DNA from: a virus
Lineage: Duplodnaviria; Caudoviricetes
Reading direction: 5' to 3' (one strand)
IMG/VR virus record: IMGVR_UViG_3300046697_000245
Coordinates: 1-58,757 of that record
Length of the DNA: 58,757 nucleotides
Positions 1 through 58,679 of the stretch are shown piece by piece. The notes beneath the pieces are model-generated. The model saw only the letters and a list, made by a program, of their open reading frames with translations. It was not told where the DNA came from and searched no databases. A program made the translations under genes and the position numbers. Within the stretch, counting starts at the first letter, position 1. Every line of letters begins with the position of its first letter.

Positions 1-322
1 GCTCAGGCTCGTCCACAATGCCCTGCGGTCGGCGGCGCTCAGGCTCGGCCACCATGCCCTGCGGTCGGCGTCGCTCAGGCTCGTCCACAATGCCCAGCGG
101 TCGGCGTCGCTCAGGCTCGTCCACCATGCCCTGCGGTCGGCGTCGCTCAGGCTCGTCCACAATGCCCTGCGGTCGGCGTCGCTCAGGCTCGTCCACCATG
201 CCCTGCGGTCGGCGGCGCTCAGGCTCGGCCACCATGCCCAGCGGTCGGCGTCGCTCAGGCTCGTCCACAATGCCCTGCGGTCGGCGTCGCTCAGGCTCGG
301 CCACAATGCCCTGCGTTCGGCC
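1..322. repeat. 36-bp tandem repeat, ~9 copies, runs off the left edge
   Basis: Unit GCTCAGGCTCG(T/G)CCAC(A/C)ATGCCC(T/A)GCGGTCGGCG(T/G)C repeats contiguously from position 1 with no spacers. Confidence 0.97.
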
Positions 323-360
323 AATAATTGTTTGATTTCACCAACAAGCTTTCTCTTCAT
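1..360 (-). CDS. Partial Trp-rich 12-aa repeat protein, 3' end outside the window
   Basis: ATG at 360, read by hand as MKRKLVGEIKQLLAERRALWPSLS-DADRRALWTSLS-DADRWAWWPSLS..., open to position 1. Same strand as its neighbours; absent from the ORF track because it has no stop. Confidence 0.65.
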   Translation of the reverse strand, partial: MKRKLVGEIKQLLAERRALWPSLSDADRRALWTSLSDADRWAWWPSLSAADRRAWWTSLSDADRRALWTSLSDADRRAWWTSLSDADRWALWTSLSDADRRAWWPSLSAADRRALWTSLS

Positions 361-3755: not shown

Positions 3756-4474
3756 CCATGACGCCTCCCCACTTTCACCTCCAGCGCCTCCAGCGGCGCC
3801 TCCACGGTCTCGACGGGTTGTGCCCCGTTCACCGCGGCTCTATCGCGATGAGCGGGCGGCTGTCCACTGTCCGCTGGCGCCGCCTCGGCTTCCCCGAAGA
3901 TCGGCGCCGCCTCCGCCGCGCCCATCATCCCCCGCTCAAAGAACGATCCCGGCACCTGCGCGCCTTGGCCAGGGCCGCCCCCCTCCGGCGGCATCATCCG
4001 CTCCGTGCCGTTGCGCCCGCTGCGAATCGTTCCCGCCACCACCAGCGCCAGCTTCAACACTTCCATGTGAATTGTGTGCGCCGCCTTCAAGTCCTTGGGA
4101 TCGGTCTCGATCAGCGCATTCAGCCTGCGCATCGCCCGGCGCTCGGTCTCCCGGCAGAGCATATCCTCCACCTCTTCGCGGCGGTTAATGTCGGAGGCGT
4201 CCAGCTTGGCCTGCTCCATGCGCAGTATCTGTTTTTGGATGGCCAGCTCGGCCTGCACATGAGGCCGTTTCAGGAGGGTTCGCGCGTGCTGCTCGGTCAT
4301 GCGCGCGCGGCGCGCGGCAACGCTCAACTTATCTTCCACCGCCCCATAACGCACGTACTGACGCACCAGAAACAGCTCCTGCGAGCTCAGCGACGGCGCG
4401 CGCTTGGGCGTTGCCCCGGTTTTGGCGTTGCTCTTACTCATCGGCACATCTCTTCGGCGCAGCTTTTTTTCCAC
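3752..4474 (-). CDS. Probable terminase small subunit
   Basis: ATGA overlap with terL; N-terminal LS.QE..FV..Y...AARRA....A..LLKRPHVQA helical pattern typical of TerS. Confidence 0.65.
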   Translation of the reverse strand: MEKKLRRRDVPMSKSNAKTGATPKRAPSLSSQELFLVRQYVRYGAVEDKLSVAARRARMTEQHARTLLKRPHVQAELAIQKQILRMEQAKLDASDINRREEVEDMLCRETERRAMRRLNALIETDPKDLKAAHTIHMEVLKLALVVAGTIRSGRNGTERMMPPEGGGPGQGAQVPGSFFERGMMGAAEAAPIFGEAEAAPADSGQPPAHRDRAAVNGAQPVETVEAPLEALEVKVGRRHG

Positions 4475-7500: not shown

Positions 7501-10500
7501 TCCAGCTAAGTGAGTTTTGTATTCCTCGGCTGCCATTTTTGCTTGGTCCATCCTAAACACTGAGTTTGATCCGAAGAATTTAACAGGGGACCCGTCGGCA
7601 TCTTGGACTTCATATCCATTGCCAACCTGTTCAACCTTCAGCTTTGCGTGATCGCCGAGTCGCGTCTCCCCCACCCGCGCGCTCTTCAAAAACCATGTCG
7701 GCGCCTTGTCCAGGTCTGACCACTGATCGCTGATAGCTGAAAGCTGTTTTTGAAACAGGCTCGCCATCCCCCCCGCTTCCGTCCCGGCAAACAGCGGCGA
7801 CTCCCGCTCCATCCGCCCCGCCGCTCCGCTGATGCTCGGCCTGGGCGCAAGCAGCCGGTCAGAGAGTTGCAATCCCGTCTCTGAGAGGTTTCTGGCTTGA
7901 GCCACGTGCCGTAGTCTGATATGTTCTTCGAGCCGCTCTATATCTGCATCAAGTCGGTCTAATTCATCGTTGGCGCGGGCGAATTGTGCGGTGCCCTCAG
8001 GTGCGGCGGAGTACGCTCTAGCGGCTTTATCATGCTGCGTGTGCAAATCGGCAAGCTCTGCATCTAATGCGGTAACCGCCTCGCGTTCCCGCACAGCGCC
8101 CTCAAAGCCCGGCAGCGCCACCGCCTCACCCTGCAACGGCACAAACCCAGCGCGGCGCGCCCGCATCCGCTGGAAAAACCCGCTCCGCGCCGCCGGCACT
8201 TGCTGATCGCTGACGGCTGACGGCGGACGGCTGCTCTTCAGTTCACCTTCCTTCGCGCCCGCTCGCGCAGCACCTCGTTCATCACCTTTTGCCGTGGGTC
8301 GTGTTCCGGCGCCAGGCTCACGTGATACTCGCCCGGTTTCAGCGGCGGCATCTCCCGCAAATGCTTTGCCGCTATCTGGTCGAACTCTTTCTCGTGCTTC
8401 CGGTTCAGCGCCTCCCGGAATGCGCTGGTCATACTCCCTGCCATAGTCTGCCCCTTTCAGTTCATCAATAATCCGTTGCATCGACCGCTCCACCGGCGGC
8501 ATATCATCCAAAATCTCCGGCCCAAATTCATCCACAGCCGCCGTCAGAAAAGCGTGTGCCACGTCGACACGCTCCGCTTCAGTTGCATCCAGCGCCGGGT
8601 CGCCGGCCAGCGGTTTGGCCAGCAGCTCATGAGCCATCTCCCATTGCGCCGCCGCCGGATCGCCGGCGCCATACCCCAACTTACGCAGCCGCGCGGCCAT
8701 CTCCGCCACCTCAGGCCGGGTGGCAATCTCTCGCATGGCGTCGGAGTTCATTAGCTCATGCCGGATTGCCCAGCCGTGCCAGGCCTCCTCGCGCGCCGTG
8801 TCGTCGCGATAGTCGCCGCGCAGCACCGTGGTCAGCCCATCCTCACCCTTGGCCGCCGCCAGCGCCTTCGCCATCCGGTCGTAACCGTCCGCCGCCGTGT
8901 TCCGCCCATCCTTGCGCGCGGCGGCCGCCGCCTCCCGCATGATTGCCGCGCCTGTCCGGCTCACATGTTCCGGCAGCGTCATGCCCAGCCAGTCCTGCCC
9001 CGCGCCCAACGGGTTCCGTCCGGCGCTATCCGTCATCTTCGCAAAGGCCCGATGCCACAGCACCGCCGAATCCGCATCCAGCGCCACCGCCCGCCGCCCC
9101 GCCGCGTCTACCGCCTCCGGCCGCGCCGCCACCGCATTCTCATGCAGCCCGCGCCCCTTCGCCGCATCCTTGGCCTTGGTGAAGCGTGCAATCCGCAAAA
9201 CCTCAGACTCGCCGGCAGAGCGGGGACTCGGAACTCTGTTCCCTGCTTCGCCGGCATTTCTAACTCCTCCAGCCGCACTAACACTGCCCGTGCGGCCAGC
9301 ATCAGTATACGCCACATCCTGCGAACGCGCCACGGCTTCGCCGCCAGGCGGCATGGCAGGCGAGGTTGCTCCGGATGGTTCGGCTTTGCGCAGCGTGCCA
9401 TCCAAATCCACCAGAATAGGCTTGCCTTCATCGCCGGGGTTAGTGGTATGGCTTAATATGCGGCCAGTGTTGTGTTCCACATTTGAACTGTCGTCGTAGA
9501 TAGCCCCGTCTCCGGCATCCTTCACGTCAGTGATCGGCAGGCTCACCCCAAACTGCTCGCGGATTGCCGCATCAACGGCGCGGCGGTTGGCTTCGACCGG
9601 CTCCCTGCTGATGCGCCGCGTAAATATCTTTACGGGCAAACCTTTATCAATCCGCTCACGCACCAGTTTGGCAATGTCTCCGTCGATAGGCGCCCCTATC
9701 GGCGGCACTGTAGAGCCGGCATCCCCGCCCGCCGCCTGCTTCTCCGGCCACCGCACATACTTTGCGGGAATGTCGCGCAACGTGCTGCCGTCGGCAAGGT
9801 CCACACGGACCAATCCCGGTATTCCGTTCGTGGGCCTTGAGTAATGCCGCGCGGTGCCGCTCACCCAGCTTCCGTCTACCTTATTGCGCACCTCAACAGG
9901 CAACGCAATCTTGTTGGTCTGCCCGTTTGGAGGCCGCCATTCTACCTCTGCGGCTGGGGCGCTTCCGCTTCCGGCTGTGGTTGGGGCTGTAGGTCTGGGC
10001 GCTCCGGCTGGCTGGACTGGTCCGGCTGAAGCGCGAACCTCTCCTGCATTTCCTCTGGATGCGCCAGCGCCCACTGCACCGCGTCCCGCGCCCGCTGCTT
10101 GCTGGGGCTGACCCGCCGCGGCGAGCGTATCCGATTGGTTGAGGTCTGCAATGCCATGATGGAACTCCTCGTCTGTCAGTGTACTCCCAAATGCGTGATT
10201 GAAGGCGTCAAAAGCCTCTCCCCCGCCAAACATTCTTGTTGCGCCCGGCAGGTTCTGCTTCGCGTCTGTAGCAAAGTTCTGAAAGCGCGTCCTGACCGCA
10301 TTCGGCTTTTCGTCCAACACCTTTACCAGCGCGTCGACAACCGGATTCCGGCCCGGCCCAAAGATGCTTCGCTGGTTCACCGTCAGTTCTACCGTCGAGC
10401 CGTTCCGGGCAATCGTCGTGTGCTCAGCCACCGCGCGCAGCAGCGCCGGCCTAACCGCATAAATCAGGTTCCACTCATCCGGCCTCGAGCCAATCGCCGA

Positions 10501-13500
10501 GATCGACCCCAGGCTCTTCTCGATCTTGTCCTTGATCGACTTCGGCGCCGCGTCCAGCAGACGTGAATCGTTAAAGACCGACCCCATCATCGCCCGTTCA
10601 ATAAAGGTTTTGCCCTCTTCGCTCAGCGACTTGCCATCGGATTCAAGGTACTGCGGACGCTCCCGCTCGGTCAGCGCGCCGTCCTGCACCATCATCTGCA
10701 ATATCTCCGGGCCCTTGCGACCCAGCACCTCGCGCAGGCTGCTGTCATCCTCATTCTGCATCGCGCTCACGGTTTGCAGGGTCTCCGGCTTCAACTTCTT
10801 CCCGGCGCTCACCGCCCGCTCGCTCACGCCCAGCGCCCCGGTCATATTCTTGTTCAGCTCAGAGCCGATCCGCTGCGCCTCGTCCAGGCTGGCTGGCCGG
10901 TCAATCTGCCGCACCAGCACCGGATATTTCATGCCGACGACCTGCTCCGGCGTCAGGCCATAAGCCGCCGCATCCCGTCTCAAGGCGTCTCGATACGTCC
11001 CACCCCGGCCCTCAGCGTAAACCCGCTGCGTGCTCATTGCCCGCGAGTTGCCGCCCAGCACAGTCCCGTCCGGCGTAATCACCGGCGGGCCGTTCACCGC
11101 GTCCGGGTTGGTATTCACCGTGTAGGCCGGGTCGTAGTTTTGCGCCTGGTCGATCACCCGGTTCTGCGCCTCTTTGCTGCGCTTGTAATCCCGCTCCTGC
11201 ACACCGGCGGGGTACTCCGGATTCGGTTCAAAGCTCTGCGCATGATGGCTGGGTGCAAGGTCGCTCGCCTCTACCAGCCGATAGATCCCCGGCAGCTTCC
11301 GGGTCGGCGTCAGCACCTCCGTCGGCCGCCCATCGTGCCCGCCCACCGCCGGGCGCACAGGCAGTTTCTCCGGTTCCCTGACCGGCTGAACGTCAGGCGT
11401 TAAGTTGGCTGGCGGCTGCGCTTGCGGCCTCGGATTCCCCAGCATCGTTTGCTCGGCGCTGTCCTGCAACACCGCGCGCCCCTGATTCTCCGGCTGCTGA
11501 CCGCTGACCGCTGACGGCTGCGCTTTCTTGTGAATCTCCTCAATCTGCTTCCCCAGCCGGTCCGCCTCCGCCTGATCGCCGCGCGCCAGAGCCTCTTTCT
11601 GCTTCTCGTAGAGCGGGTCAGTCTCCTTCATCGCGTCGGCCTGGCCCTTGGGAACCACCTGCAACTCGCTGACCTGATTCGCCTCGCCCGCCGCGCCGGT
11701 CCGCACACCATACTGGTCCGCCTGCAACCCGTTCGAAGTGATCTTGTCGCGGCTCTCCACCGGCAACTGCTGCTCGACGTTCTGCCGCACGGCGGCCAGC
11801 GCCTCCGGCGTCTCCGCGCTCACCCGCGCCCCCAGATGGTCGATATTCGTCTCGGATGGCTTGCCGCGCGCTGCCTTGTTGGCCTGGCTCTCAGCATCCT
11901 TGACGCGGCTGCCCTCCACCTGCGCTCCCGGCACCCCGGCCACCGCCTGCTCCGCCATGCCTTGCAGCTTCGGCTCCTGCTCCGTCGCCGATGCGCGTAT
12001 CTCCGCCGGCTCCGCGCTCCCCTGCACCACCGGCCGCTCCGCCTCCGGCTGACCGCTGACGGCTGACGGCTGCTCCACCGTTTCACGTGGAACGCCCGCC
12101 GGCGCGGCCAACTCACCAGCCACAAGCCGTACAGGAGCCGGCACCGGAGCCACTGGAGCTTCACCACCGCCTGCCCGCCGCCCGCCAACCGTCAGCGACG
12201 CCGTGGGTCGTCCAGGCACCACCACACTGCCCTCTTCAGGGCTGTAAGAACCTTCCGGACCCGGCGCACGATAAGCTGGGCGGTAACCGGCACGCGCCTC
12301 GACCGGCCCCACACCTACGCGCACACCGCGCTCGCCGTAAGCTCCGGTGTAGCCTTTTCCCTTTGCGCCGAGACCACCGCCCAAAATGGCTCCCACATCT
12401 CCCGCCAGAGCCACGGTGTTAGCACTGGCTCCAATGGTTTGAGCGGCTTTGCTCGCCACCAGGCTGCCAATCGTTCCAAAAACCAGAACCGACGCCGTTA
12501 CTGGAGCATTTATAGCGGCGCCCGCTGCCATGGCCGGCTTGCCAAACGTCTCCATCGCTCCACTGACCGCCTGATGCGCGCCGCCTTCTCGCTCATCAAA
12601 GCTACGCGGGCGAATGCCCTTTCCGGCCAGTACGCGTACTACACCATCCGCTTCCAACTCAGGATACATTGCCGAGACCTTGGCGTAGGCGTCTCCGTAA
12701 TCCTGATCGGTCAACACTCGCATCCCGGCATCGAGGTTCTTTAAGCCTTCAATCGGATGGTAGGGAAGATCGATATGCTCTTCACGCGCAATCCGTGCGG
12801 CCTCGCTCTCGGTCGGTTCCAGGTGCAGCCCGCTAGATACCCCAGGAGCCATATCTTGCAGCGTGTGTCCGGCTTGGCTGTTAGCAAGCCACTCCCGCGC
12901 TTGCTCCAGCTTGCCCTGCTCCGGCGCGGCGCTCAGTTCTGCCTGCTCATGCCCGCGGCCAATCACCGGCGCGGATGGCACCAGTTGCGGCCCACCCTGG
13001 GCTGGCTCTAACGGCACCGCTGGCGCGGGCGTGGGCTTGAATGCATCTTGTGTGCCCAGCGCGGCGCGCGTCCTCTGCTGCAACTCCTCAGCGGCATTCT
13101 GCGGCACGGCCTTTTGCGGGTTCACAAAGGCGCTGGAGGTCATCTTGCTCTGGTCTGCCGGTCGCTGCGCGGGCGCGGGCATCAACTGCAGCCCCTGCCG
13201 CACCATCGGCGGCCGTGCGCGATCGATGGCTTCAACGCCGTAAAGCTGGCCCAGACTGCTCGCCGCTCCCGGCTGTGCCCCAGCCAAAGGCGCGGGCGGC
13301 GCTGTTGGCGCGCTCGGCGTGGCCACGGCCTGTGGTCCTGCGGTCGGCGTCGGCGCGGGAACTGGCGCGGGTGGTGCTTTCGTTTTTAGTGAAGCGATGT
13401 AAGTAGCATACGGATCATCCGCCGGCGTTGGCGGCGTTGGCGGCGCTTTCGTTTTCAGTGAAGCGATGTAGGCAGCATACGGATCTTGCGGTGGCGGCAT

Positions 13501-13572
13501 CCCGCCTGGGGGCGCATTGCTTGCCGTAACTGGTTGTACCGAAGCGTCCACTGTGCCCCCCTTGACTTTCAA
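4534..13572 (-). CDS. Giant (~3000 aa) polyvalent internal-virion/ejection protein: RelA/SpoT-like, DdrB-type ParB-like, SH3/Tudor-like, permuted HAD and zincin-like domains
   Basis: Last of three ejection-type ORFs. Motifs: SRVK...S...K, DHLGARV, ELQ; YRLVEASDL.PSH...QERDY...GPPV...G.VLGGNSR; DLDGTL; EEAWH. Real start is probably GTG at 13551 (SD AAGGGGG). Confidence 0.8.
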   Translation of the reverse strand: MKVKGGTVDASVQPVTASNAPPGGMPPPQDPYAAYIASLKTKAPPTPPTPADDPYATYIASLKTKAPPAPVPAPTPTAGPQAVATPSAPTAPPAPLAGAQPGAASSLGQLYGVEAIDRARPPMVRQGLQLMPAPAQRPADQSKMTSSAFVNPQKAVPQNAAEELQQRTRAALGTQDAFKPTPAPAVPLEPAQGGPQLVPSAPVIGRGHEQAELSAAPEQGKLEQAREWLANSQAGHTLQDMAPGVSSGLHLEPTESEAARIAREEHIDLPYHPIEGLKNLDAGMRVLTDQDYGDAYAKVSAMYPELEADGVVRVLAGKGIRPRSFDEREGGAHQAVSGAMETFGKPAMAAGAAINAPVTASVLVFGTIGSLVASKAAQTIGASANTVALAGDVGAILGGGLGAKGKGYTGAYGERGVRVGVGPVEARAGYRPAYRAPGPEGSYSPEEGSVVVPGRPTASLTVGGRRAGGGEAPVAPVPAPVRLVAGELAAPAGVPRETVEQPSAVSGQPEAERPVVQGSAEPAEIRASATEQEPKLQGMAEQAVAGVPGAQVEGSRVKDAESQANKAARGKPSETNIDHLGARVSAETPEALAAVRQNVEQQLPVESRDKITSNGLQADQYGVRTGAAGEANQVSELQVVPKGQADAMKETDPLYEKQKEALARGDQAEADRLGKQIEEIHKKAQPSAVSGQQPENQGRAVLQDSAEQTMLGNPRPQAQPPANLTPDVQPVREPEKLPVRPAVGGHDGRPTEVLTPTRKLPGIYRLVEASDLAPSHHAQSFEPNPEYPAGVQERDYKRSKEAQNRVIDQAQNYDPAYTVNTNPDAVNGPPVITPDGTVLGGNSRAMSTQRVYAEGRGGTYRDALRRDAAAYGLTPEQVVGMKYPVLVRQIDRPASLDEAQRIGSELNKNMTGALGVSERAVSAGKKLKPETLQTVSAMQNEDDSSLREVLGRKGPEILQMMVQDGALTERERPQYLESDGKSLSEEGKTFIERAMMGSVFNDSRLLDAAPKSIKDKIEKSLGSISAIGSRPDEWNLIYAVRPALLRAVAEHTTIARNGSTVELTVNQRSIFGPGRNPVVDALVKVLDEKPNAVRTRFQNFATDAKQNLPGATRMFGGGEAFDAFNHAFGSTLTDEEFHHGIADLNQSDTLAAAGQPQQAAGAGRGAVGAGASRGNAGEVRASAGPVQPAGAPRPTAPTTAGSGSAPAAEVEWRPPNGQTNKIALPVEVRNKVDGSWVSGTARHYSRPTNGIPGLVRVDLADGSTLRDIPAKYVRWPEKQAAGGDAGSTVPPIGAPIDGDIAKLVRERIDKGLPVKIFTRRISREPVEANRRAVDAAIREQFGVSLPITDVKDAGDGAIYDDSSNVEHNTGRILSHTTNPGDEGKPILVDLDGTLRKAEPSGATSPAMPPGGEAVARSQDVAYTDAGRTGSVSAAGGVRNAGEAGNRVPSPRSAGESEVLRIARFTKAKDAAKGRGLHENAVAARPEAVDAAGRRAVALDADSAVLWHRAFAKMTDSAGRNPLGAGQDWLGMTLPEHVSRTGAAIMREAAAAARKDGRNTAADGYDRMAKALAAAKGEDGLTTVLRGDYRDDTAREEAWHGWAIRHELMNSDAMREIATRPEVAEMAARLRKLGYGAGDPAAAQWEMAHELLAKPLAGDPALDATEAERVDVAHAFLTAAVDEFGPEILDDMPPVERSMQRIIDELKGADYGREYDQRIPGGAEPEARERVRPDSGKAFAGDAAAETGRVSREPGAGTRPTAKGDERGAARAGAKEGELKSSRPPSAVSDQQVPAARSGFFQRMRARRAGFVPLQGEAVALPGFEGAVREREAVTALDAELADLHTQHDKAARAYSAAPEGTAQFARANDELDRLDADIERLEEHIRLRHVAQARNLSETGLQLSDRLLAPRPSISGAAGRMERESPLFAGTEAGGMASLFQKQLSAISDQWSDLDKAPTWFLKSARVGETRLGDHAKLKVEQVGNGYEVQDADGSPVKFFGSNSVFRMDQAKMAAEEYKTHLAGPDMTVPYLPVTDAMRQSAMQQGFPMFQRAGEAARATAGREAGATPSKLDTSHALEDAISELAKLPKRSMTMKERVTAASDAGRDAFGTGRTKLQGALGAVHGASVGAWSSWSKPAPWTDYFKNLGDLRGAEFKSAMDVDTYQKELKRVAPSERERNAITVFSEAKDEQELKRWAAEVRHMANPAAQKRLQDFRDALRLTPEQKAVAAAHRDYFDQQLKILIDAGLLPAGASHYAMHMYASDPAMLGNIRAAASLSELAPSPGFLKERVWPNFFEALAHGEDPKTMDAGKILSAYHDSFTKAFMTRGFVKSLLTGTVEKPKVYTELPTGFEPISLKDDDGKDMWYVKGPEDTLFTNKGQTQETAIKEVLDYLNQHEKLKPIAVLESRAGWTMLDKDASGDARIVQQPKRPLDMNDYVRLPYSQLKNFEWEMTEADRKMLVPGYDKMSETEQGKLFGPEDTHFPVPADKRAAMRGDLLIHKDYAGRISDLLAESWLKTPSEHAAVNVMKAGLRGTQTAGAKVKGAILYGSGFHQVQLGTHALDHFINPFSVPDLKVLAKDQQVLEGVKHGLELLHIDPEGVLSGLPGMQSYKRYLFRDWIPRLKGKAYKIIDDRNMNRYGGVRPGHAAKMTPDEIHAMSASQTNAAFSGQDPAFFRHLDFMSGRTWKAAEHLLTFSPDFTKARAQFVAQGFSKYGGEQRLALIRGAVLMYATCRIVNAAINHDKGMAGGYWKPEDAFAVVTPERWGSVMGGKRISLRTVYGDIAGLITDPVEWGYNRLNPVTVRPTIEFITGRDNFGRQETKSSFFKNYAKQSTPIPVQKVLNTSSEGLVDGFFTAMGLQMNNYRTPLERQAAKMRIANIPDKPQDEDKQAESRRIVQEVMKLRKAGAVGADTSSWPDEAQKELGAGKWTDSEFETIVKRAGMTALQYDVDHLGMDDALEIWKRADAGEKEEMKKIMQTKGTNSIKEVGEKRAAAADGLMARLDKAGIEY
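12079..12094. promoter_or_regulatory. parS-like palindrome inside the giant gene
   Basis: CGTTTCACGTGGAACG matches the 14-bp core of the widespread chromosomal parS consensus TGTTNCACGTGAAACA. Confidence 0.7.
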
Positions 13573-30904: not shown

Positions 30905-31324
30905 TCAACTCTTCCACCAAATAACCTCTTGCGCGCGCCGCGCCACCAGGCCCGGCAAAATCTTTCCCTTCGCATACACCCAGCGCGGCAACTGCTCCGG
31001 AACCTGATCGATGCCATGCCTCAGCATCGTGCGCAGCCTGTAGATCCCCAGGTTGTAAATGAAGCTGGTCAGCGCGTCATACTGGCCTTGCGTCCAGCAT
31101 CCCAGCGCCGTCACCTGAGCCTCAAATCCGGCAATGTCCTTATCAAAAAGCGTTTCCGCATCAATCGCGGTGATTCCGTTCACGTAGAGGCCGCTTTCAA
31201 CCTCCGCGCCAGTGAGCTTATGGCCATAGCCGATGGTGGGGTTGCCGTTCGCGTCCAGGTAGATTCCGGTGCGCAAACCCTCCCACTCCATAATCATTGC
31301 CCGGCATGTTTCGCTCGACTGCAT
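30905..31324 (-). CDS. Endolysin, GH24 phage lysozyme
   Basis: EG....Y.D..G..TIGYGH triad; Q.QYDAL.SF.YNLG; LPGLVARRAQE. Confidence 0.95.
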   Translation of the reverse strand: MQSSETCRAMIMEWEGLRTGIYLDANGNPTIGYGHKLTGAEVESGLYVNGITAIDAETLFDKDIAGFEAQVTALGCWTQGQYDALTSFIYNLGIYRLRTMLRHGIDQVPEQLPRWVYAKGKILPGLVARRAQEVIWWKS

Positions 31325-43383: not shown

Positions 43384-44559
43384 TCAGTCCCTGGTCCCGA
43401 GGCCCTTGATCTTCGCCGCCCAGGCCTCCAGCATCTCGCGCCGCTCAGCCGCGTAGGCTGCTCGATTGTACACCCCGCGCACCCCGCCAATCTCGTGCCC
43501 TAACGCCTTTTCCACCACCTCAGCCTTCCATCCCGCCTCGGTCAGCAGCGTCGACGCCGTGCGCCTCAAGTCATGCACCGTGAAGTGCTCCACATGCGCC
43601 GCCCGCGCCACCTTGGCCAGCGTCCGGTTCAGCGCCCCAGCCCACAGCGGCCACGTCAAAGCCTCCCGGCCAGGCAACACCATCTCCACCCGCGGCCCCT
43701 GCATCGCGCGCAACTCCCGCAAACACTCCAGCGATCCATCGCTCAGCGGCACCAGCATCTCCCGGCCCATCTTCGTCCGCCCCGCCGGTATCACCCACTC
43801 CGCCCGCTTCAAATCTACCTCCACCCAGCGCGCCAGCCGCAACTCGCTCTTGCGCACCATCGTCAGCAAAAGCAGCCGGATCGCGTGCCTGTGCGCCTCC
43901 GGAACATTGCGTAATTTCTGCTTGAGTGCTCTTAATACCCGCCTCAGCTCTTCCTCGCTCAGCGCCCGATCGCGCGCCTTGCGCCGCGCCACATAGCGCA
44001 GCGGAGTGGATATTGCCGGGTTGCTGTCGGCCACGCCGCAGACCATCGCATAATCCCAAACCCGCTTGCACAGGCCGCGCAACTTGGCCGCCGCCGCCGG
44101 CCTGCCCGCTTCCAGCTTCCCAAAGATCAACGCCTGCAGCTCCCGCGCCGTCACCTTGTCCATCGGCCGCGCGCCCAGCCGCCGCACAATCTCCCGCTCC
44201 AGCGGCCTGCGCACCGCCGCCATATCCTTGCGCGCCCCGCGAGCTTCCAGGTTCTTCAGGTAGCGCGCCGCAAACTCCTTCACCGTCACCCTGGCCCCGT
44301 AGCCCTGCCGCCGCGCCTGCTCCACGCTGCGCGGATCCTCACCCTGAGCCAACGCCTCCGCCAACTCCCGCGCCCGCTCCCGCGCCGCCGCCAGCGTCAT
44401 CGCCGGGTAGGCGCCCAGCGTGATTCTGGTTGGCTGACTGCTGGCGGCTGACTGCTGGCTGCTGTACCTCCACCGCCAACTCTTTCTCCCCGTAGGCATT
44501 ACCTCCATCTCCAAGCCTTCGCCAAAACCCTGAGTATAGCGGCTCTCGCGAGTCTTCAA
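43384..44559 (-). CDS. int: Tyrosine recombinase/integrase, P4-like with arm-binding domain
   Basis: G.GL...V...G.KSW..RY, ITLG.YP...LA.AR; catalytic R (VRKSE), K (TKMG), HDLRRT, LGH, YN. Confidence 0.93.
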   Translation of the reverse strand: MKTRESRYTQGFGEGLEMEVMPTGRKSWRWRYSSQQSAASSQPTRITLGAYPAMTLAAARERARELAEALAQGEDPRSVEQARRQGYGARVTVKEFAARYLKNLEARGARKDMAAVRRPLEREIVRRLGARPMDKVTARELQALIFGKLEAGRPAAAAKLRGLCKRVWDYAMVCGVADSNPAISTPLRYVARRKARDRALSEEELRRVLRALKQKLRNVPEAHRHAIRLLLLTMVRKSELRLARWVEVDLKRAEWVIPAGRTKMGREMLVPLSDGSLECLRELRAMQGPRVEMVLPGREALTWPLWAGALNRTLAKVARAAHVEHFTVHDLRRTASTLLTEAGWKAEVVEKALGHEIGGVRGVYNRAAYAAERREMLEAWAAKIKGLGTRD

Positions 44560-44741: not shown

Positions 44742-44870
44742 ATGTCCACAGCGGAACAGTTTTTGACTATAACACACGTTCCACGTGAAACATCATCTCT
44801 CCCATAAGAGAATATCGCCTCTGTTGATAAATAAAAGAAGTTGTCCACACCTTCCACAACTTTTTCCACA
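44742..44870. promoter_or_regulatory. DnaA-box cluster in the int/early divergent region
   Basis: TTTTCCACA 44862-70 (perfect TTWTNCACA), TTGTCCACA 44841-49, CCTTCCACA 44850-58, TGTTGATAA 44822-30, ATGTCCACA 44742-50. Confidence 0.7.
44777..44792. promoter_or_regulatory. parS site, chromosomal type
   Basis: CGTTCCACGTGAAACA, 15/16 to TGTTNCACGTGAAACA, intergenic. Confidence 0.85.
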
Positions 44871-44878
44871 TTATTTAC

Positions 44879-44918
44879 TTGACAACATTGTCATCATTGT
44901 CGTAATGTTCATCATGTA
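44879..44918 (+). promoter_or_regulatory. Promoter of the + strand operon, overlapped by operator-like repeats
   Basis: TTGACA-18 bp-TAATGT; GACAA-CA-TTGTC palindrome; 9-bp-period repeats CATTGTCAT/CATTGTCGT/AATGTTCAT. Confidence 0.6.
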
Positions 44919-44939: not shown

Positions 44940-45134
44940 ATGACCACCCGCGAACAGATGATCTCTGAGTTTCTTCGCCAGGCCGAGCGCGAGGCTGCTG
45001 GCATTGAGGAACCGATCATCGTACTGATTCCTTGCGCCATCACGGCGCCCAACTCTAACCCTTGTGTTCAAGCCGCCAGAGAGCGCGTCTACGCCCTCGA
45101 GCTTGAACTGGCCGACGCCTGCCCCTGTTGCTGA
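44940..45134 (+). CDS. Hypothetical protein (64 aa)
   Basis: SD AGGAGG; first ORF after the promoter. Confidence 0.6.
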   Translation: MTTREQMISEFLRQAEREAAGIEEPIIVLIPCAITAPNSNPCVQAARERVYALELELADACPCC

Positions 45135-45146
45135 AAGAAGATAGCT

Positions 45147-45479
45147 ATGCCGCCGCTGCCCGATTCCAATATCCACGCCAACCTGCTCAAGCGCATCGCC
45201 GATGCGGAGACGCTGCTGGTCTCCCTCAGGCACAGCGTCCGCGCCCTGCGCAATGATGTTTTGCTGGCCAGCAATGCCGGCGCAGCGCACGATGACGGCG
45301 GGGCCGCTCCAGCCAGCAATGAAATCCAGAGCCTGGCTGTAATTGAAAAGGCTTGCATCCTGAATGCTCTGGCCGCCTGCAAAGGCAACGCCTTTAAAGC
45401 CGCCGCCCGGCTGGGCATCGGCAAAACCACCCTCTACCGCAAACTCAAAGAGTACGCGGCTGAGGATTCACACATCTAA
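45147..45479 (+). CDS. Fis/NtrC-type HTH DNA-binding protein
   Basis: EK..I.NAL....GN..KAA.RLGIGKTTLYRKLKEY. Confidence 0.9.
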   Translation: MPPLPDSNIHANLLKRIADAETLLVSLRHSVRALRNDVLLASNAGAAHDDGGAAPASNEIQSLAVIEKACILNALAACKGNAFKAAARLGIGKTTLYRKLKEYAAEDSHI

Positions 45480-49398: not shown

Positions 49399-50019
49399 TC
49401 AATTCCATAGCCGGCAGAGCCGCTCGATGCCCACAATCGCGTTGCCCGGCATCTCCATATCCGACGAACTCTCCAGCAGCTCCTCGGCGGTGCGCGAGGC
49501 CTCGCAGAATTCCTCCGTCGACCGGAAATGGAATTGGCTTTTGTGCTTTCCCGCACCCATGTTGGCGCGCCACAGCACCGGCAACTTCTTTTCCGGCAGT
49601 TGCTCCGGCTTCGCCGCGCGCGGCTGTTTATTTCCTTGCTGCCGTGTGGATACGTCAGGATGCCGCGCGGCAGGGGGTCTGTGGGCTGGAGCGCCCAGGG
49701 AACCGTTCGACTCTGGACCCTCTCCTGTATGTGCTGTTATGCTGGCCGCGGTGGCCTTCGCCGCGCGCCGCAATCTCTCTTCCCGCGTGATGTTTCCCAC
49801 TGTCTTGCTCCTCTCCGCCGGGGTCTCCGGCCCGCCAATCCCACGCTGAAGCGCAGGGCTTATTCGCTCGACTTGCTGACGGCTGCACGGTACTCCAGCG
49901 TCGCAATCAAAGCATAGATGCGTCTTGCCGCCGTTGGCGGTCACCAGGCCGGCGCAGTAGTGCCCGCGCGCCCGGCAATCGTCGCAAGCAGGAGTCGGCG
50001 CCGCGATCACCTGGCCCAC
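49399..50019 (-). CDS. Hypothetical protein with Cys-rich N-terminus
   Basis: CDDC...C...C..C....C followed by a low-complexity linker. Confidence 0.6.
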   Translation of the reverse strand: MGQVIAAPTPACDDCRARGHYCAGLVTANGGKTHLCFDCDAGVPCSRQQVERISPALQRGIGGPETPAERSKTVGNITREERLRRAAKATAASITAHTGEGPESNGSLGAPAHRPPAARHPDVSTRQQGNKQPRAAKPEQLPEKKLPVLWRANMGAGKHKSQFHFRSTEEFCEASRTAEELLESSSDMEMPGNAIVGIERLCRLWN

Positions 50020-50233
50020 CAGTCCTTCACCGCCGCCAGGCTGAATCCCGCCAGCGCCAGCAGCACAACTCCAACAACAAAAACCTGTTCAGCCATGGCT
50101 CACTCCGTTGCTGTGGTCAGTGATTTTAATTCGTAAAAGCGTTCCAAAAAGGCTTGCTCCGCATTTTGAGGAGACATGGGCGTCAGGATGCCGCGCGGCA
50201 GGGGTTCTGTGGGCTGGAGCGCCCAGGGAACCG
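49653..50233. repeat. 53-bp direct repeat, 49653-49705 and 50181-50233, one mismatch
   Basis: CGTCAGGATGCCGCGCGGCAGGGG(G/T)TCTGTGGGCTGGAGCGCCCAGGGAACCG. Confidence 0.95.
50007..50096 (-). CDS. 29-aa single-TM peptide
   Basis: Manual translation MAEQVFVVGVVLLALAGFSLAAVKDWWAR; fills the gap between two genes. Confidence 0.5.
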   Translation of the reverse strand: MAEQVFVVGVVLLALAGFSLAAVKDWWAR

Positions 50234-50660
50234 ACGGCTGCATCAGGTCGCGCTGCTCCCAGAGCATTATGTAATCGTCGGCAGCCTTGACCGCCGGCGG
50301 CTCCTCAAGCGGCAGCAGGTTGAATCGATCACAGACAGCGGCCATCACGCGCTGCTCAACCAGCCTGTATTCCGCGCCAAGTTTGCTGAATCTCTTGATG
50401 GGGCGCGGCAGATCAACCAGATAAGCCTCCGCGGCATCGTGGAGCAGGCCCCAGAGAGCAAGCCTCGGCTCTTGAAAGCAATCACTCACGCGCAGGGAGT
50501 GTTCGCCGACGCTGTAAAAGACGCGCACATGGCCGCCGAAGCGGCATTGCAGTGACAGCGCGTGCGCAATGTCCACGATAAATATCTCCTCGGACCGAGG
50601 ATCGATGGGCCAAAACTGCCGCCCGGTGTAAGTCTGCATCCAATCGCCTTTACGCTTCAT
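50100..50660 (-). CDS. HD-domain 5'-deoxynucleotidase-like phosphohydrolase (YfbR-like phage family)
   Basis: W.QTYTG, DIAHALS..CRF.GH...FYSV.EHS, LLHDA.EAY..D.P.P.K, VK.AD. Confidence 0.9.
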   Translation of the reverse strand: MKRKGDWMQTYTGRQFWPIDPRSEEIFIVDIAHALSLQCRFGGHVRVFYSVGEHSLRVSDCFQEPRLALWGLLHDAAEAYLVDLPRPIKRFSKLGAEYRLVEQRVMAAVCDRFNLLPLEEPPAVKAADDYIMLWEQRDLMQPSVPWALQPTEPLPRGILTPMSPQNAEQAFLERFYELKSLTTATE

Positions 50661-53704: not shown

Positions 53705-53953
53705 TCAGTTGTCAGTTGAAGTTTCATGACCTGGGCATCCGTGTTTGTAATCGAATCCCTCGCAAGGTTCGCCGAGCGGTAATTTCTCATGCCCTGCGGC
53801 CAATTCGTCCATTAGTGAATTCTTGAACTCAGCTACAGAAACATAGCGCGTTCCGTCGTTCTTCGTTATACTCTTCAGATTGCGGCGCGTTTCTGCTTCA
53901 GACCAATGCAGCATTCCGCGAACAGAAATACACATATGAGTGGTTGTGCTCAT
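53705..53953 (-). CDS. Conserved-type small phage protein
   Basis: HMC.SVRG.L...L.DEL..G...LP...C..FDY..GCPGH; ATGA coupling. Confidence 0.75.
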   Translation of the reverse strand: MSTTTHMCISVRGMLHWSEAETRRNLKSITKNDGTRYVSVAEFKNSLMDELAAGHEKLPLGEPCEGFDYKHGCPGHETSTDN

Positions 53954-55140
53954 CCGCGCACCTCCGGAAAGGCCTTGTGCTCCACGCCGTCAAGCAGCGA
54001 GCCCGCGGCCTTCTTGCCGACTTTGTCCATTGCTTCCGCTTTTCCATCCCACCATTCGCCCTGCTGGCCCCATACACCATCCGGCCGCAAGAAGATGCCA
54101 CCGCCCGTGTATTTATCCCTAACCGGCTCAGACTTCGTCGGGGCCCACTCGCCCCACTGTTTGAAGAAGAAGGCCGTGCCGGCCGCCGCGCACTGATCGC
54201 GCAGACTCCGCGCCCAGTCGGGGTGCATGGGACGCGCTCCGGGGCCGCTCTCGCCGCCAGCGATCACCCAGTCGAGACCACCAGGAGTTTCCCCATTGAA
54301 GTCATGCCAATCCCACCCTGCGTACTGACCGGCTTCTGGTAACCATCGGGCTGGCACATCGACCTTCCATAAATCCAACAACCCCAGCAACGGCTCGCAA
54401 CTCACATACCGCACCGCCGCCGGCGTCTGAAGCAGCAAAGGTACGCGCTCATCCGCAGCAGTCTGATTCTCAGCCGTCACGCCCAGCCAGATGTTGGGAA
54501 GGGGCCAAGGCCGCTCGGAGCTATGGCGCCATTTCTCAGGATCGAGTCCCCCATACCCGCGCAAGGCGTTCACGAAGATAATCTCTCCGAGGCGGTTCCG
54601 TGCGGTAAGAATGTACGCCAGCATCCGCTCTGGCCGCTTGGTCAGCACCTGGAAGATATGCTGCGGGCAAAGCGCCATCACCGCGAAGATACGGTCCAGC
54701 ATCTCATCCGTCACCCACTCGGCGAAGAGGTCCGACTGGTTCTCGACAAAGATTTTGCGCGGCTGTGCGGGATCACGGCCCACCACTTTTCCAGTTTCAG
54801 CGTCATAGAGCGGCCTACCTGGCTTCCACCCCAACGGCTGCAAAAGCACCTTCTCATCCACAAACGCCTCGACCAGATCGCGGCTACGCCGATCATAGGG
54901 CAGGCCGGTGCCGTTTCCCGGCAGGCAGCGGTGGTTATTGGTCTCCGCATAGCAGTGCTCGCAGCCAAGCCAGGGGACGTGTTCGCAGTGCTGGCCCACG
55001 TGGCCGGCCATCTTCTCCGCAATTGAAACCAGCGACGTATAACCTTTGGCGCGGGCGATCTCAGCCGCGTCCGCCTTCACCCTCACCCTGATCGGTGACC
55101 AGGTGCTATCCGTCCATTCAATGCCCGTCTTAGCTCCCAT
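53950..55140 (-). CDS. Phage Gp37/Gp68 family protein (DUF5131)
   Basis: TGIEWTD.TW.P, C......GCEHCYA, IFV...SDLF, FQVLTKRPER, NIWLGV..E.Q, SCEPLL, WVI.GGESG..ARPM.P.W.RSLRDQC, FFFKQWG. Confidence 0.93.
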   Translation of the reverse strand: MGAKTGIEWTDSTWSPIRVRVKADAAEIARAKGYTSLVSIAEKMAGHVGQHCEHVPWLGCEHCYAETNNHRCLPGNGTGLPYDRRSRDLVEAFVDEKVLLQPLGWKPGRPLYDAETGKVVGRDPAQPRKIFVENQSDLFAEWVTDEMLDRIFAVMALCPQHIFQVLTKRPERMLAYILTARNRLGEIIFVNALRGYGGLDPEKWRHSSERPWPLPNIWLGVTAENQTAADERVPLLLQTPAAVRYVSCEPLLGLLDLWKVDVPARWLPEAGQYAGWDWHDFNGETPGGLDWVIAGGESGPGARPMHPDWARSLRDQCAAAGTAFFFKQWGEWAPTKSEPVRDKYTGGGIFLRPDGVWGQQGEWWDGKAEAMDKVGKKAAGSLLDGVEHKAFPEVRG

Positions 55141-55192
55141 CAACTTCCCTCCAACGCCCGCCACAAGAATCCCCTGCGGCCCTCACCCCGGT

Positions 55193-55495
55193 TATTACCG
55201 GGTAAATACCTTATATAAATACCCGTAGTAGCAGTAGTTTCCTGTGGATAAGTGGAGATTCAAGCCAAACCGTTTATTGTGAGCAATTTTGACCACCCCC
55301 AGCCTGTGCATCCTTTTGTGGATAGTTTCTGCAAAATTGGAAAACTCCACCTTATCTCCCACGTTGCGGCCATCCTTTCCACACCTTCCACACCCCCCAC
55401 CTATTCCCCCTGTGCATCCTTCGGATAACTCAGTACAAATACACCTATCTCTTACATTATTATAGGTTTTCAATCCCCTGTTTTTCCACACCCTC
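55193..55495. other. oriC-like replication origin: AT-rich tract, DnaA-trios and DnaA boxes
   Basis: TTATATAAAT 55211-20; TAG-TAG-CAG-TAG 55226-37; TGTGGATAA 55243-51; TGTGGATAG 55317-25; CTTTCCACA-CCTTCCACA 55375-92; TTTTCCACA 55482-90. Confidence 0.75.
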
Positions 55496-55831
55496 CAAGG
55501 CCGACTGCTTTTTCTCAACCCTTATATTCCAGCCGGTTTTAGGGGTCTTCTTGATGGTCAATCCGCTTTGAGATTGCCACCGGGAGACCGTGTTGCGATG
55601 CACTCCCATCCTGCGCGCCGCCACACACTGGTTTCCATTGGCACGAATCAACTCCGCCGCTAGCCACTCCCTGCGCCACATTTCCATGGCGATTTTGTAG
55701 GGGACCTTCCACTCGGTCAGGCGCCACACCACACTGCACAGCTTCTCTGTAATCTCCTCAACCTCGCCCACCACATGCCTCCATGCAGTTATCAGCCTAT
55801 GCGGCCCTGGCCGCCATCCCGAGGCCCTCAC
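55460..55831 (-). CDS. Fis-like HTH protein (real start probably downstream, ~55765)
   Basis: Y..A...W.R.....L....GNQC.AARRMGVHRNT.SR. Confidence 0.8.
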   Translation of the reverse strand: MRASGWRPGPHRLITAWRHVVGEVEEITEKLCSVVWRLTEWKVPYKIAMEMWRREWLAAELIRANGNQCVAARRMGVHRNTVSRWQSQSGLTIKKTPKTGWNIRVEKKQSALEGVEKQGIENL

Positions 55832-56999: not shown

Positions 57000-58679
57000 T
57001 TACCGGTTTTGGCTTTGCGGCGCAGACGCGGCCGCCGCCGGCGTGTAAACCGCCGCCTCGCTGGTCAGCACCAGGGCGGCAATTGACACCGCCTTCTCCA
57101 GCGCCACCCGCACCACCTTCACCGGGTCCACAATGCCACTCTCCATCAGATCCTCGTAGTGGCCCGTCGCCGCGTTCAATCCGTAACTGTCGCCCGGGGT
57201 GCTGTATTCAAGGCTTTTTTTCACCTCATCCAGCGCCACGTCAGGGCTGATGCCGGCGTTGGATGCAATCTGCCGCAGCGGGGCTTCAAGCGCCTCAATC
57301 ACCACCTCAACGCCCATCCGCGCCGCCTGGCTCATCTTCCCCAATTCATATTCACGCGCCTTGATGGCCTGCGCCGCCTTCAGCAGCGTGATGCCGCCGC
57401 CCGGCACCACCCCCTCAGCCTTGGCCGCCTTGGCGCTGTTGACCGCATCCTGCACCCGCGCCTTCGTCTCATCCAGGGCTGTGCGCGTCAGGCCGCCCAC
57501 ATGCAAAATCACCACACCCTCGCTGAGCCGCGCAATCCGCTGCGAGAGCATCTCCTTCTCAAAGTCGTCATCGGTGGCCGCGCGCAGCGTGCGCAGCTCC
57601 TCGGCCCGCTGCCGCGCCGCCTCCACAATCTCATCCTTGCCTTTGGCGGCATGTTCCACGCCCACTTCAATCAGCTCTGTCCGGTCGGGATGCACCACCG
57701 CCAGCGCGCAACTTCCCAGCTCCTTCAGGCCAAAACGAGATAGAGCGTTGCCCATATCGGGCGAGTAGACCGTTGCCCCGGTCGCCTCGGCCAGATCCCG
57801 CAGGCACTCCTTGCGCCGCGCTCCCACCCCCGGCGCCGTCACCGCGCAGCTTTGCAGCGTGCCCCGCGCCACGTTATGCACCATCATCGTCAGCGCATCG
57901 CCAGCCACCTTCTCCGCCACCACCAGCAGCGGCCGCCCCGTCGGCGCCACACACTCCAGCAGCGGCAGCAGGTTCATCGGGCTGTTCGGCGTCCTCGGGT
58001 CCGCCTGCGCAACCTCCCGCTCGCTCAGCAGGATGTAAGGCCGCTCCAACACACAGTCAGCGCCCCGGTTCACAAAGGCCGGATGCACCCAGCCCGCATC
58101 CCACTGAAAGCCCTCGCGCAACTCTGAATGCGTCTCCCGCCCCAGCGCGTCATCGATGATGACCATGCCTTCCGGCCCCACCCGCTCCACCGCGTCGGCT
58201 ATATGGCGCGCAATCTCCGCATCGCCGTGCAGGCTCACCGTAGCTGTTTGGGCAATCAGTTCCGGAGTGGCCTCTATCCGAGCCTCGGCAATGCGCTCCT
58301 GTGCCCACCCGGCAGCAACTTTCAGCCCTTCGGCCAGCTCCAGGCGATCCACCCCGCTGGCCACCAGCTGCATTCCCTTGTGCAGCATCGCCGCGGTCAG
58401 CACCACCGCCGTCGTGGTGCCGTCGCCAACGGCTTCATCGGTGGATGCCGCCACCTGCCGCAGCAGGCGCGCCCCGGCCGCCTCCAGCGGCTCCTCAGGC
58501 TCAATCTCCTTCACCACCGATACCCCATCCAGCGTCGCCCGCGGCGCCCCAAACGCACTGCAAATCAGAACGGGCCGGCCCTTGGGCCCCAATGTCGTCC
58601 GCACCGCCTCCGCCACCGTCATCACACCGCGCATCACCGCCTCGCGCGCCTCATTGCCCTTCGCTATCTTGTTTGACAT
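57000..58679 (-). CDS. groEL: Chaperonin GroEL (divergent Cpn60)
   Basis: TLGPKGR, GDGTTTA, APG.G..RK..L.DLA..TG, GVVPGGG, P.RQIA.NAG, GI.DP.KV.R.AL..A.S.A; no GGM tail. Confidence 0.95.
   Translation of the reverse strand: MSNKIAKGNEAREAVMRGVMTVAEAVRTTLGPKGRPVLICSAFGAPRATLDGVSVVKEIEPEEPLEAAGARLLRQVAASTDEAVGDGTTTAVVLTAAMLHKGMQLVASGVDRLELAEGLKVAAGWAQERIAEARIEATPELIAQTATVSLHGDAEIARHIADAVERVGPEGMVIIDDALGRETHSELREGFQWDAGWVHPAFVNRGADCVLERPYILLSEREVAQADPRTPNSPMNLLPLLECVAPTGRPLLVVAEKVAGDALTMMVHNVARGTLQSCAVTAPGVGARRKECLRDLAEATGATVYSPDMGNALSRFGLKELGSCALAVVHPDRTELIEVGVEHAAKGKDEIVEAARQRAEELRTLRAATDDDFEKEMLSQRIARLSEGVVILHVGGLTRTALDETKARVQDAVNSAKAAKAEGVVPGGGITLLKAAQAIKAREYELGKMSQAARMGVEVVIEALEAPLRQIASNAGISPDVALDEVKKSLEYSTPGDSYGLNAATGHYEDLMESGIVDPVKVVRVALEKAVSIAALVLTSEAAVYTPAAAASAPQSQNR

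Follow-up and report, generated by a model that had tools for sequence, protein, structure and literature searches.

A conserved DnaA-box and DnaA-trio module as a candidate replication origin of an uncultured temperate phage from peat

How does a tailed phage with no recognisable replication gene begin to copy its genome? The question is raised by positions 55193-55495 of a virus record that we call the window, which is the entire assembly, a single contig of 58,757 nt, and whose source is an uncultured temperate phage from peat (the habitat statement is limited to peat, and runs with small shares were left out of habitat claims). The stretch is a non-coding gap in which an AT-rich tract, the motif ACCCG, a row of DnaA-trio-like triplets, a short spacer, a perfect DnaA box, and more boxes follow one another on the + strand. 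A first-pass annotation had compared this order to the basal unwinding system (BUS) of bacterial chromosome origins and had proposed that the phage replicates as a minichromosome initiated by host DnaA alone. The layout is identical to that of chromosomal elements, boxes are present in excess, the module is conserved in single copy, and recognisable replication genes are lacking; DnaA binding, unwinding, and origin function are what we infer from these sequence data. The observation is confirmed, and strengthened by conservation, and its interpretation is plausible and partly supported. We put at roughly 0.55 the probability that 55193-55495 is a phage replication origin of the BUS type, opened by host DnaA. 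The parts of the module, numbered on the window, are as follows.

55196-55204 and 55220-55227: inverted repeat, TACCGGGTA and TACCCGTA, flanking the AT-rich tract on both sides
55203-55221, + strand: AT-rich tract, 17 of 19 positions A or T, which includes the TTATATAAAT noted earlier (55211-55220)
55212-55231, + strand: conserved 20-mer core, TATATAAATACCCGTAGTAG
55221-55225, + strand: ACCCG
55226-55237, + strand: four DnaA-trio-like triplets, TAG (55226-28), TAG (55229-31), CAG (55232-34), and TAG (55235-37)
55238-55242, + strand: 5-nt spacer TTTCC, from the trios to the proximal box
55243-55251, - strand: proximal perfect DnaA box, TGTGGATAA (TTATCCACA on the - strand)
55317-55325, - strand: box CTATCCACA, 1 mismatch, paired with a degenerate box inside the 13-mer CCTGTGCATCCTT at 55303-55315
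55375-55392, + strand: two abutting boxes in opposite orientation, CTTTCCACA (55375-55383, 2 mismatches) and CCTTCCACA (55384-55392, 3 mismatches)
55409-55428, - strand: second copy of the 13-mer CCTGTGCATCCTT, then TTATCCGAA (55420-55428, 2 mismatches)
55482-55490, + strand: distal box, TTTTCCACA, 1 mismatch

Re-reading of the sequence agrees with the AT tract, ACCCG, TAG TAG CAG TAG, TTTCC, and perfect box as first noted, and the Fis-like gene said to end in the region does so, as the 3' end of a gene for a Fis/NinH-like helix-turn-helix (HTH) protein (55460-55831, - strand) falls within the module. The inverted repeat and the AT-rich tract that it encloses (55196-55227) are presumed to be the unwinding element. 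By AT content, this tract comes second among the 20-nt windows of the contig, and in the three genomes compared, the contig included, it ranks 2nd, 4th, and 5th. The proximal box is the only perfect DnaA box in the contig; a weak second box, AGTGGAGAT (55251-55259, 3 mismatches), abuts it with base 55251 in common, and the counterpart of this second box in the contigs L311/L342, AGTGGATAA, has 1 mismatch. Counted by mismatches, the gap has a single perfect box and two boxes each at 1 and at 2 mismatches, and the "at least four more perfect or near-perfect boxes" of the first-pass annotation therefore stand if 2 mismatches are allowed but not under a stricter limit. The sole exact repeat in the gap is the duplicated 13-mer, which aligns on TGTGGATC-type DnaA boxes of relatives, and neither a repeat search nor alignment with relatives found iterons in the module separate from the DnaA boxes. 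The distal box overlaps the -35 of a - strand promoter-like site (TGGAAA 55488-83, 18 nt, TATAAT 55464-59).

A scan for DnaA boxes, which had been proposed as a check, supported the claim, with 18 boxes of at most 1 mismatch over the whole window against 5.2 expected, a number reached in 0 of 100 shuffles. The densest 300-nt stretch for boxes in the contig is this gap. Among 5,000 dinucleotide shuffles of its 303 nt, the probability of at least 3 boxes with at most 1 mismatch was 0.0002, and that of at least 5 boxes with at most 2 mismatches was 0.012.

The BUS is defined in Bacillus subtilis incC and comprises DnaA boxes 6 and 7, DnaA-trios, and an AT-rich region (Richardson 2019, PMC6669920; Pelliciari 2021, PMC8287927; Pelliciari 2023, PMC10721633). 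The trio consensus is given there as 3'-GAT-5' with a middle adenine, its side and strand being set by the orientation of the box, and the search rule as a box with at most 2 mismatches, a spacer of 0-16, and at least three NAN triplets (PMC8287927). The window element falls within this published rule, with its perfect box, its 5-nt spacer, and its four trios, each of which has A in the middle. It resembles the BUS in having a box, a short spacer, at least three mostly-TAG trios, and an AT-rich tract in the same order, with more boxes on the box side. It is unlike the BUS in lying in a phage, away from dnaA and dnaN, in its 5-nt spacer, in its invariant ATACCCG and the inverted repeat around a short AT tract, and in that its origin function is a prediction. 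Escherichia coli oriC (NC_000913.3, 3925744-3925975) likewise has an AT-rich element, R1 TGTGGATAA, an array, and a final inverted R4 TTATCCACA, where the window runs from TGTGGATAA at 55243 to TTTTCCACA at 55482. The 13-mer triplet and the GATC cluster of E. coli oriC are absent from the window, the trios of which are explicit TAG repeats, unlike those of E. coli, and IHF and Fis sites are not identifiable in it though the phage encodes Fis-like proteins.

We also compared the element with prokaryotic chromosomes, one genome per species, using the pattern TAGTAGNAGTAG-N3-7-TGTGGATAA; at least 120 stretches matched and 80 loci were kept. In the kept loci the trios lie on the same side and strand relative to the box as in the phage module, and the same polarity is seen in E. 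coli oriC. An open reading frame (ORF) with the DnaA signature (Walker plus C-terminal motifs) was present in 49 of the 80 kept loci, and in most of these the end of the dnaA-like ORF lies within ~1 kb of the pattern, which is the arrangement of B. subtilis. As most of the kept loci hold a dnaA-like ORF, the trio-box pattern can be taken as the signature of the basal unwinding system, and the likeness drawn by the first-pass annotation withstands both comparisons. The window itself is not a chromosomal oriC, being a virus contig that encodes a terminase, a lysozyme, an integrase, and tail-like genes, with 0 DnaA family matches.

Relatives were found through alignment of a 1183-aa structural protein, and they include a 39.9-kb fragment (G001) and four genomes of 61.8-66.6 kb with terminal repeats, rated complete (G002, G003, G005, and G006). 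Their structural genes are syntenic at ~25-65% identity, and their early regions are mosaic. A tight cluster of boxes is present in both G003 and G005 and proved on reading to be the same module. Scans of genomes and collections recovered the exact 20-mer TATATAAATACCCGTAGTAG in the window, G003, G005, L278, and L281, the last being a contig, close to the G003 version, of a metagenome-assembled genome (MAG) labelled Terracidiphilus; one further match, L282, is without boxes and was taken as chance. A broader scan added a near-identical core in L305 and in L311/L342. The core, the trios, the 5-nt spacer (TTNCC; TTCTC in G005), and the proximal TGTGGA box are present in all six distinct versions, and the spacing of trios and box is accordingly conserved in related phages, as the first-pass annotation had asked of them. 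In all six, boxes with at most 2 mismatches within 350 nt number 4-9 on the box side and 0-1 on the other. Box positions and orientations partly recur, and an inverted box ~144-154 nt from the core is shared by four of the six (in the window, 55375-55392). There is one core per genome, and protein identity among the module-carrying phages is ~25-60%. The ACGGGTA..TACCCGT repeat frames the AT tract in three versions, those of the window, G003/L281, and L278. A ~95% identical strain from another peat sample (X3) retains the module; 55158-55295 has one change among those listed, C>T at 55232, by which CAG becomes TAG to give TAG x4, a comparison of little weight, and some boxes differ in that strain.

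The genes that flank the module vary, from the HTH and DUF5131 genes in the window to a small membrane ORF and a phrog_997 gene in G003 and ORFs of no known function in G005. The module also lies directly upstream of DUF5131 in L278 and L311/L342, where homologues of the Fis/NinH-like HTH gene stand just upstream of it, and not in G003 or G005. Synteny around DUF5131 did not lead to further copies, as a gap with boxes upstream of this gene was kept in 0 of 25 viral, 16 genomic, and 80 metagenomic loci, and the closest partial DUF5131 match (L056) has packed genes in place of the gap. Single-sequence scans with the HTH protein and the large terminase found no relatives, the module had no DNA match in cultured phages and plasmids, and the large terminase of the closest cultured phage is ~25-30% identical.

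The first-pass statement that the phage has no recognisable replication gene has held as far as it was searched, through ORF scans, Walker A motifs, and nine families, in a contig that is incomplete (CheckV estimates 89% completeness, with ~11% of the genome absent). Pfam, PHROG, and NCBIfam scans gave no replication family among the called window ORFs, in which Walker A motifs were confined to the terminase and a chance one in a Fis-like HTH protein. In the complete relatives such motifs lie in terminases, an SNF2/methylase fusion, GroEL, polyvalent proteins, a few other large ORFs, a BCS1-like AAA protein (G005), and a ParA-like ORF (G006). Genome-level searches for DnaB_C, DNA_pol_A, phrog_270, Prim-Pol, and Bac_DnaA_C matched 0 of 5 records (the window and the four complete relatives), and those for Phage_rep_O, DnaB_2, IstB, and Toprim_2 matched 0 of 6. 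No initiator of these known families, the discovery of which had been named as grounds for refutation, was found in the window or the four complete relatives, nor was a cognate initiator of the Rep/O/RepA type at the module (phrog_270, Phage_rep_O, and DnaB_2, 0 matches). The neighbours of the module in the window are the HTH gene, a K/A/P-rich ORF, and DUF5131.

The sensitivity of these searches can be gauged from G001, the weak initiator-like ORF of which was recovered (E 8.5e-8). This fragment is without the core and has in the same place, after GroEL and a cold-shock-like gene, a winged-helix ORF (L003, 2505-3515) that matches "replication initiation protein" (E 2.4e-5) and weakly resembles a DnaD-like loader. 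The ORF contains two DnaA boxes (TTGTGGAGAA and TTATCCACA) and GGCCAC-type repeats (GGCCACATGTGGCCCC-type), a layout of origin within initiator similar to that of lambda O. From their sequences, G001 and the window look like a case of replication modules swapped at one genomic position. We also observed that a PHROG 997 gene, a family labelled "replication terminator," follows the module in G003 (50232-50612) and the initiator-like ORF in G001 (3301-3870); it is present in all five relatives and was not found in the window.

The trio-plus-box pattern is not confined to this group of phages. A scan of viral contigs with TAGTAGNAGTAG-N3-7-TGTGGAWAA gave 44 contigs, none of which (0/44) has a gene with the DnaA signature in the locus, and these matches are therefore not fragments of host origins. 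Spacers of 5 nt are commoner among them (7/44) than in chromosomes (2/80). Twenty-six contigs of ~4.3-6 kb (in the range L299-L341, e.g., L312, L340, L299, L301, and L308), small circular viral genomes, have a canonical element of the chromosomal type, made up of (TAG)5, a 4-nt spacer, and TGTGGAAAA, with an AT-rich stretch before (TAG)5 and repeated TGTTGAAAA-like sites after TGTGGAAAA. All five that were tested of these 26 are complete Microviridae (capsid F family), in which the element may act in priming of the complementary strand or in opening of the origin. Trios, box, and arrays of perfect TGTGGATAA boxes also occur together in unrelated tailed-phage contigs, mostly of low GC (L304/L307/L339, L306, L320, L327, and L335; also L315/L325 and L331), and low-GC contigs of this kind have the canonical 4-nt spacer. 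Among these, the L335 record has a gene for a DnaB-type helicase ~6.5 kb from the element, and the L327 record is a complete 41-kb genome with 0 DnaB_C matches.

In the literature searched, there was no description of such a phage module. No DnaA-trio paper, among the matches listed and judged by titles and the openings of abstracts, dealt with a phage origin; none paired Microviridae with "DnaA box"; and the only paper on an oriC-like phage with a DnaA box was on lambda. A parallel is Pseudomonas phage vB_PseuGesM_254, for which an AT-rich non-coding stretch with DnaA boxes has been proposed as the origin and which has its own primase and DNA polymerase; the retrieved part of that report, unlike our analysis of the window, mentions neither trios nor conservation (PMC11512268).

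How might such a module work? Host DnaA would occupy the one-sided array of boxes, over ~250 bp, and from the perfect proximal box it would oligomerise over the 5-nt spacer to reach the TAG trios on one strand. The adjacent AT-rich tract, framed by its short inverted repeat, would then open, and host helicase, primase, and polymerase would complete replication, as would be needed because none of these is recognisable in the phage group. Transcription from the upstream promoter-like site would cross the module and could assist or gate its opening, and the neighbouring Fis-like protein could be an accessory factor or an early regulator. The parts of this scheme differ in how firmly we hold them. 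That the stretch binds DnaA in some role is very probable on sequence grounds; that host DnaA alone suffices for initiation, as the first-pass annotation had it, is doubtful. Conservation of the module and the want of a recognised initiator speak for the first-pass interpretation in general, and the rarity of the 5-nt spacer and the failure to find the element in the candidate host family speak against a simple copy of oriC.

Other mobile elements offer partial precedents. P1 oriR, pSC101, F, RK2, and the lambda ori within gene O are DnaA-assisted origins, with iterons, a cognate Rep or O gene adjacent, and the host replisome. The module is like them in that it would be a mobile-element origin with DnaA boxes that uses the host replisome, and unlike them in having no match to a Rep/O-type family and no iterons beyond the DnaA boxes; it is G001 that resembles that type. 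The origin of lactococcal phage c2 is thought to run on host factors without phage proteins, through transcription and RNA priming. The module would likewise be a phage origin run by host factors, and differs from that of c2 in its DnaA boxes and trios.

Several observations weigh against a DnaA-opened origin of the BUS type. The spacer is unusual: among 80 chromosomal loci, 71 have 4 nt or TAG+4, 7 have 3 or 6 nt, and only 2 have 5 nt, with no dnaA-like gene within 1 kb of either, and a 5-nt spacer shifts the trios one base from the usual register. The AT-rich tract is short (~19 nt), and the known BUS assigns no role to the invariant ATACCCG that separates this tract from the trios and that may be read by another factor. 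GC skew, which is dominated by gene strand, falls steadily over the contig with no turn at the module, nor is there one in G003 or G005. In every case the next gene, transcribed in the orientation of the module, begins 20-110 nt downstream of it. A -10-like AT hexamer occurs ~25 nt after the proximal box, and the box is centred ~42 nt before such a hexamer, at a possible activator position. Because the phage has an integrase, an origin that needs DnaA alone would stay live in the prophage state, and this needs explanation. In G002 and G006 both the module and a recognised initiator are missing, and the absence of the latter is not peculiar to module carriers; it follows that missing recognisable genes are no proof of true absence. 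Most non-structural ORFs have no known function, and these or the missing ~11% may hold a new kind of initiator.

A further difficulty is the host. The only lead is binning, as two related contigs (L246 and L281) are in the one MAG labelled Terracidiphilus. No match to dnaA was obtained in that MAG, and its relatives (15 of 16 genomes counted, G021 being one of them) contributed 12 dnaA loci, none with a box cluster or trio element within ~1 kb. Pattern scans for the module element in chromosomes of the candidate host family matched 4 of 151 genomes against 8 control matches, and in a second set 7 of 61 against 6, and the matches inspected there are chance. With dnaA loci without it and both family scans at control level, we rejected a copied host origin: on these sequence comparisons, the module would not have been copied from an origin beside dnaA in that family, which leaves two options, another host or a host origin of a different form. 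One locus of the candidate family (L296, in G064) combines TAGTAGCAGTAG with two tandem TGTGGA boxes across an 8-nt spacer, in a stretch that looks non-coding, and may be another origin-like element.

Among the alternatives, the one that survives best, improbable as we consider it, is a DnaA-responsive promoter or control region, in which DnaA at the proximal box (~-42) and the array would switch the DUF5131 operon, and expression would follow the replication or energy state of the host. It would account for the constant place of the module just ahead of a co-oriented gene and for the AT-rich -10-like hexamers TATATA/TATAAG (- strand) ~42 nt ahead of the DUF5131 start, and DnaA is a known regulator of the lambda pR promoter. 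It offers no reason for the best-conserved stretch (exact CCCGTAGTAG, trios, and fixed 5-nt spacer) to lie between box and -10, has no account of the match to the chromosomal trio element, and leaves the replication start of these phages unexplained. In addition, the -10-like hexamer is lost in L305, and no usable -35 was found for the DUF5131-side hexamer, the promoter scan giving the distal site only. RNA run X24 had no reads on the stretch, which is uninformative either way.

That boxes and promoters do adjoin in this phage, a point in favour of such a control region, is seen in a second cluster of DnaA-box-like sequences at 44822-44908 (+ strand), made up of TTATCAACA (- strand), TTGTCCACA, CCTTCCACA, and TTTTCCACA. 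It abuts a strong sigma-70-like promoter, TTGACA-18-TAATGT, ahead of a 64-aa ORF (44940-45134) and the Fis-family gene at 45147-45479, and it has in common with 55378-55392 an exact 15-mer, TCCACACCTTCCACA, formed by two abutting boxes. The Fis-like gene of G003 showed no such cluster in its vicinity. The operon of the second cluster lies opposite the integrase, and from its sequence context the cluster looks like DnaA-linked control of a lysogeny-side operon.

Rather less likely still is an origin under the control of an unrecognised phage initiator, which would bind ATACCCG and the inverted repeat, with DnaA as a helper only, as in P1 oriR, pSC101, and F. The BUS does not account for the invariant core, the inverted repeat resembles a dimer site, many ORFs have no known function, a Fis-like HTH gene often adjoins the module, and G001 pairs an initiator-like gene with DnaA boxes, all of which an initiator of this sort would suit. 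It is hard to reconcile with the lack of any gene consistently linked to the module, the neighbours of which differ among the window, G003, and G005; the only window gene specific to module carriers (1104-1565; also in G003 and G005) looks secreted or membrane-bound, with a low-complexity region. Nor are there iterons besides the boxes, given that the 13-mer aligns with DnaA boxes of relatives.

We regard as very unlikely a DnaA sink for host takeover, in which the array would soak up DnaA as datA does in the host, stalling or reprogramming host replication, and would have no role in phage replication; the dense array and the second cluster at 44.8 kb would fit it, but trios, fixed spacer, and AT tract would be unneeded and are the most conserved parts, and five boxes per phage copy is a small number. 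Chance likeness, or captured host origin DNA that is now decaying and serves no function, is hardly credible in spite of the off-register spacer and the several degenerate boxes, some of them different in the X3 strain, given the shuffle result (P = 0.0002), an exact 20-mer kept at such low protein identity, and family chromosomes in which the element is at control level.

Other kinds of element were also considered and rejected. Both strands of 55165-55452 fold like shuffles (z -0.08 and -0.61), contrary to a structured RNA, and no Rfam family or tRNA was matched in the window. An attP, pac, or cos site is contradicted by G003 and G005, where integrases and terminal repeats are elsewhere.

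The genome around the candidate origin is that of a temperate tailed phage with nearly all genes on the - strand. Its other features are these.

540-1037: GroES-like protein
2103-3755: large terminase
4534-13572: polyvalent protein of 3012 aa with a ddrB-ParB domain, just upstream of the terminase genes
30905-31324: lysozyme
fibre-like protein of 1532 aa with a polysaccharide deacetylase domain
C5-methylase-like ORF
43384-44559: tyrosine integrase
short + strand block that includes the Fis-family protein (45147-45479) and an HD hydrolase
dNMP phosphatase and N6/N4 methylase
53950-55164, - strand: DUF5131 (Gp37/Gp68), first gene downstream of the module
K/A/P-rich ORF of 216 aa and cold-shock-like ORF
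57000-58679: GroEL-like protein

The contig starts inside a 36-nt tandem repeat, where the assembly broke; ~10 such repeats (12-aa units) occupy window positions 1-360, in an ORF that runs off the contig, and are the probable cause of the break. GroES-like and GroEL-like chaperonins are both encoded by the phage and are retained in most relatives. As their genes are adjacent in G003, the piece missing between the two ends of the window is suggested to be small. Homologues of the 3012-aa ddrB-like ParB polyvalent ORF, 3.7-3.9 kaa in length, are found in G002 and G006. A 53-nt direct repeat, 98% identical, lies at 49653-49705 and 50181-50233, in two genes that adjoin each other, a 206-aa ORF and the dNMP phosphatase.

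Returning to a BUS-type origin opened by host DnaA, it would, if true, be the first virus-borne DnaA-box/DnaA-trio unwinding system, and it would mean that a large tailed phage can cede initiation wholly to the master initiator of its host. Phage replication would be tied to the DnaA-ATP cycle of the host, which raises the question of how a prophage origin is kept quiet. The natural variant in 5-nt register would help to probe how much latitude DnaA filaments allow in the spacing of trios from the box. Candidate origins in uncultured viruses can be sought simply by the trio-plus-box pattern (44 contigs here), and the boxes might hint at host range. More tentatively, it is possible that temperate peat phages of ~60-66 kb are DnaA-controlled minichromosomes, with a portable module of boxes, TAG trios in a phage-specific 5-nt register, and a hairpin-framed AT tract, at which DnaA alone opens the DNA and loads the host helicase and with no replication genes of their own, and that the same solution arose in or spread to other viruses, Microviridae and low-GC tailed phages among them, which would make it a general and so far undescribed mode of viral replication.

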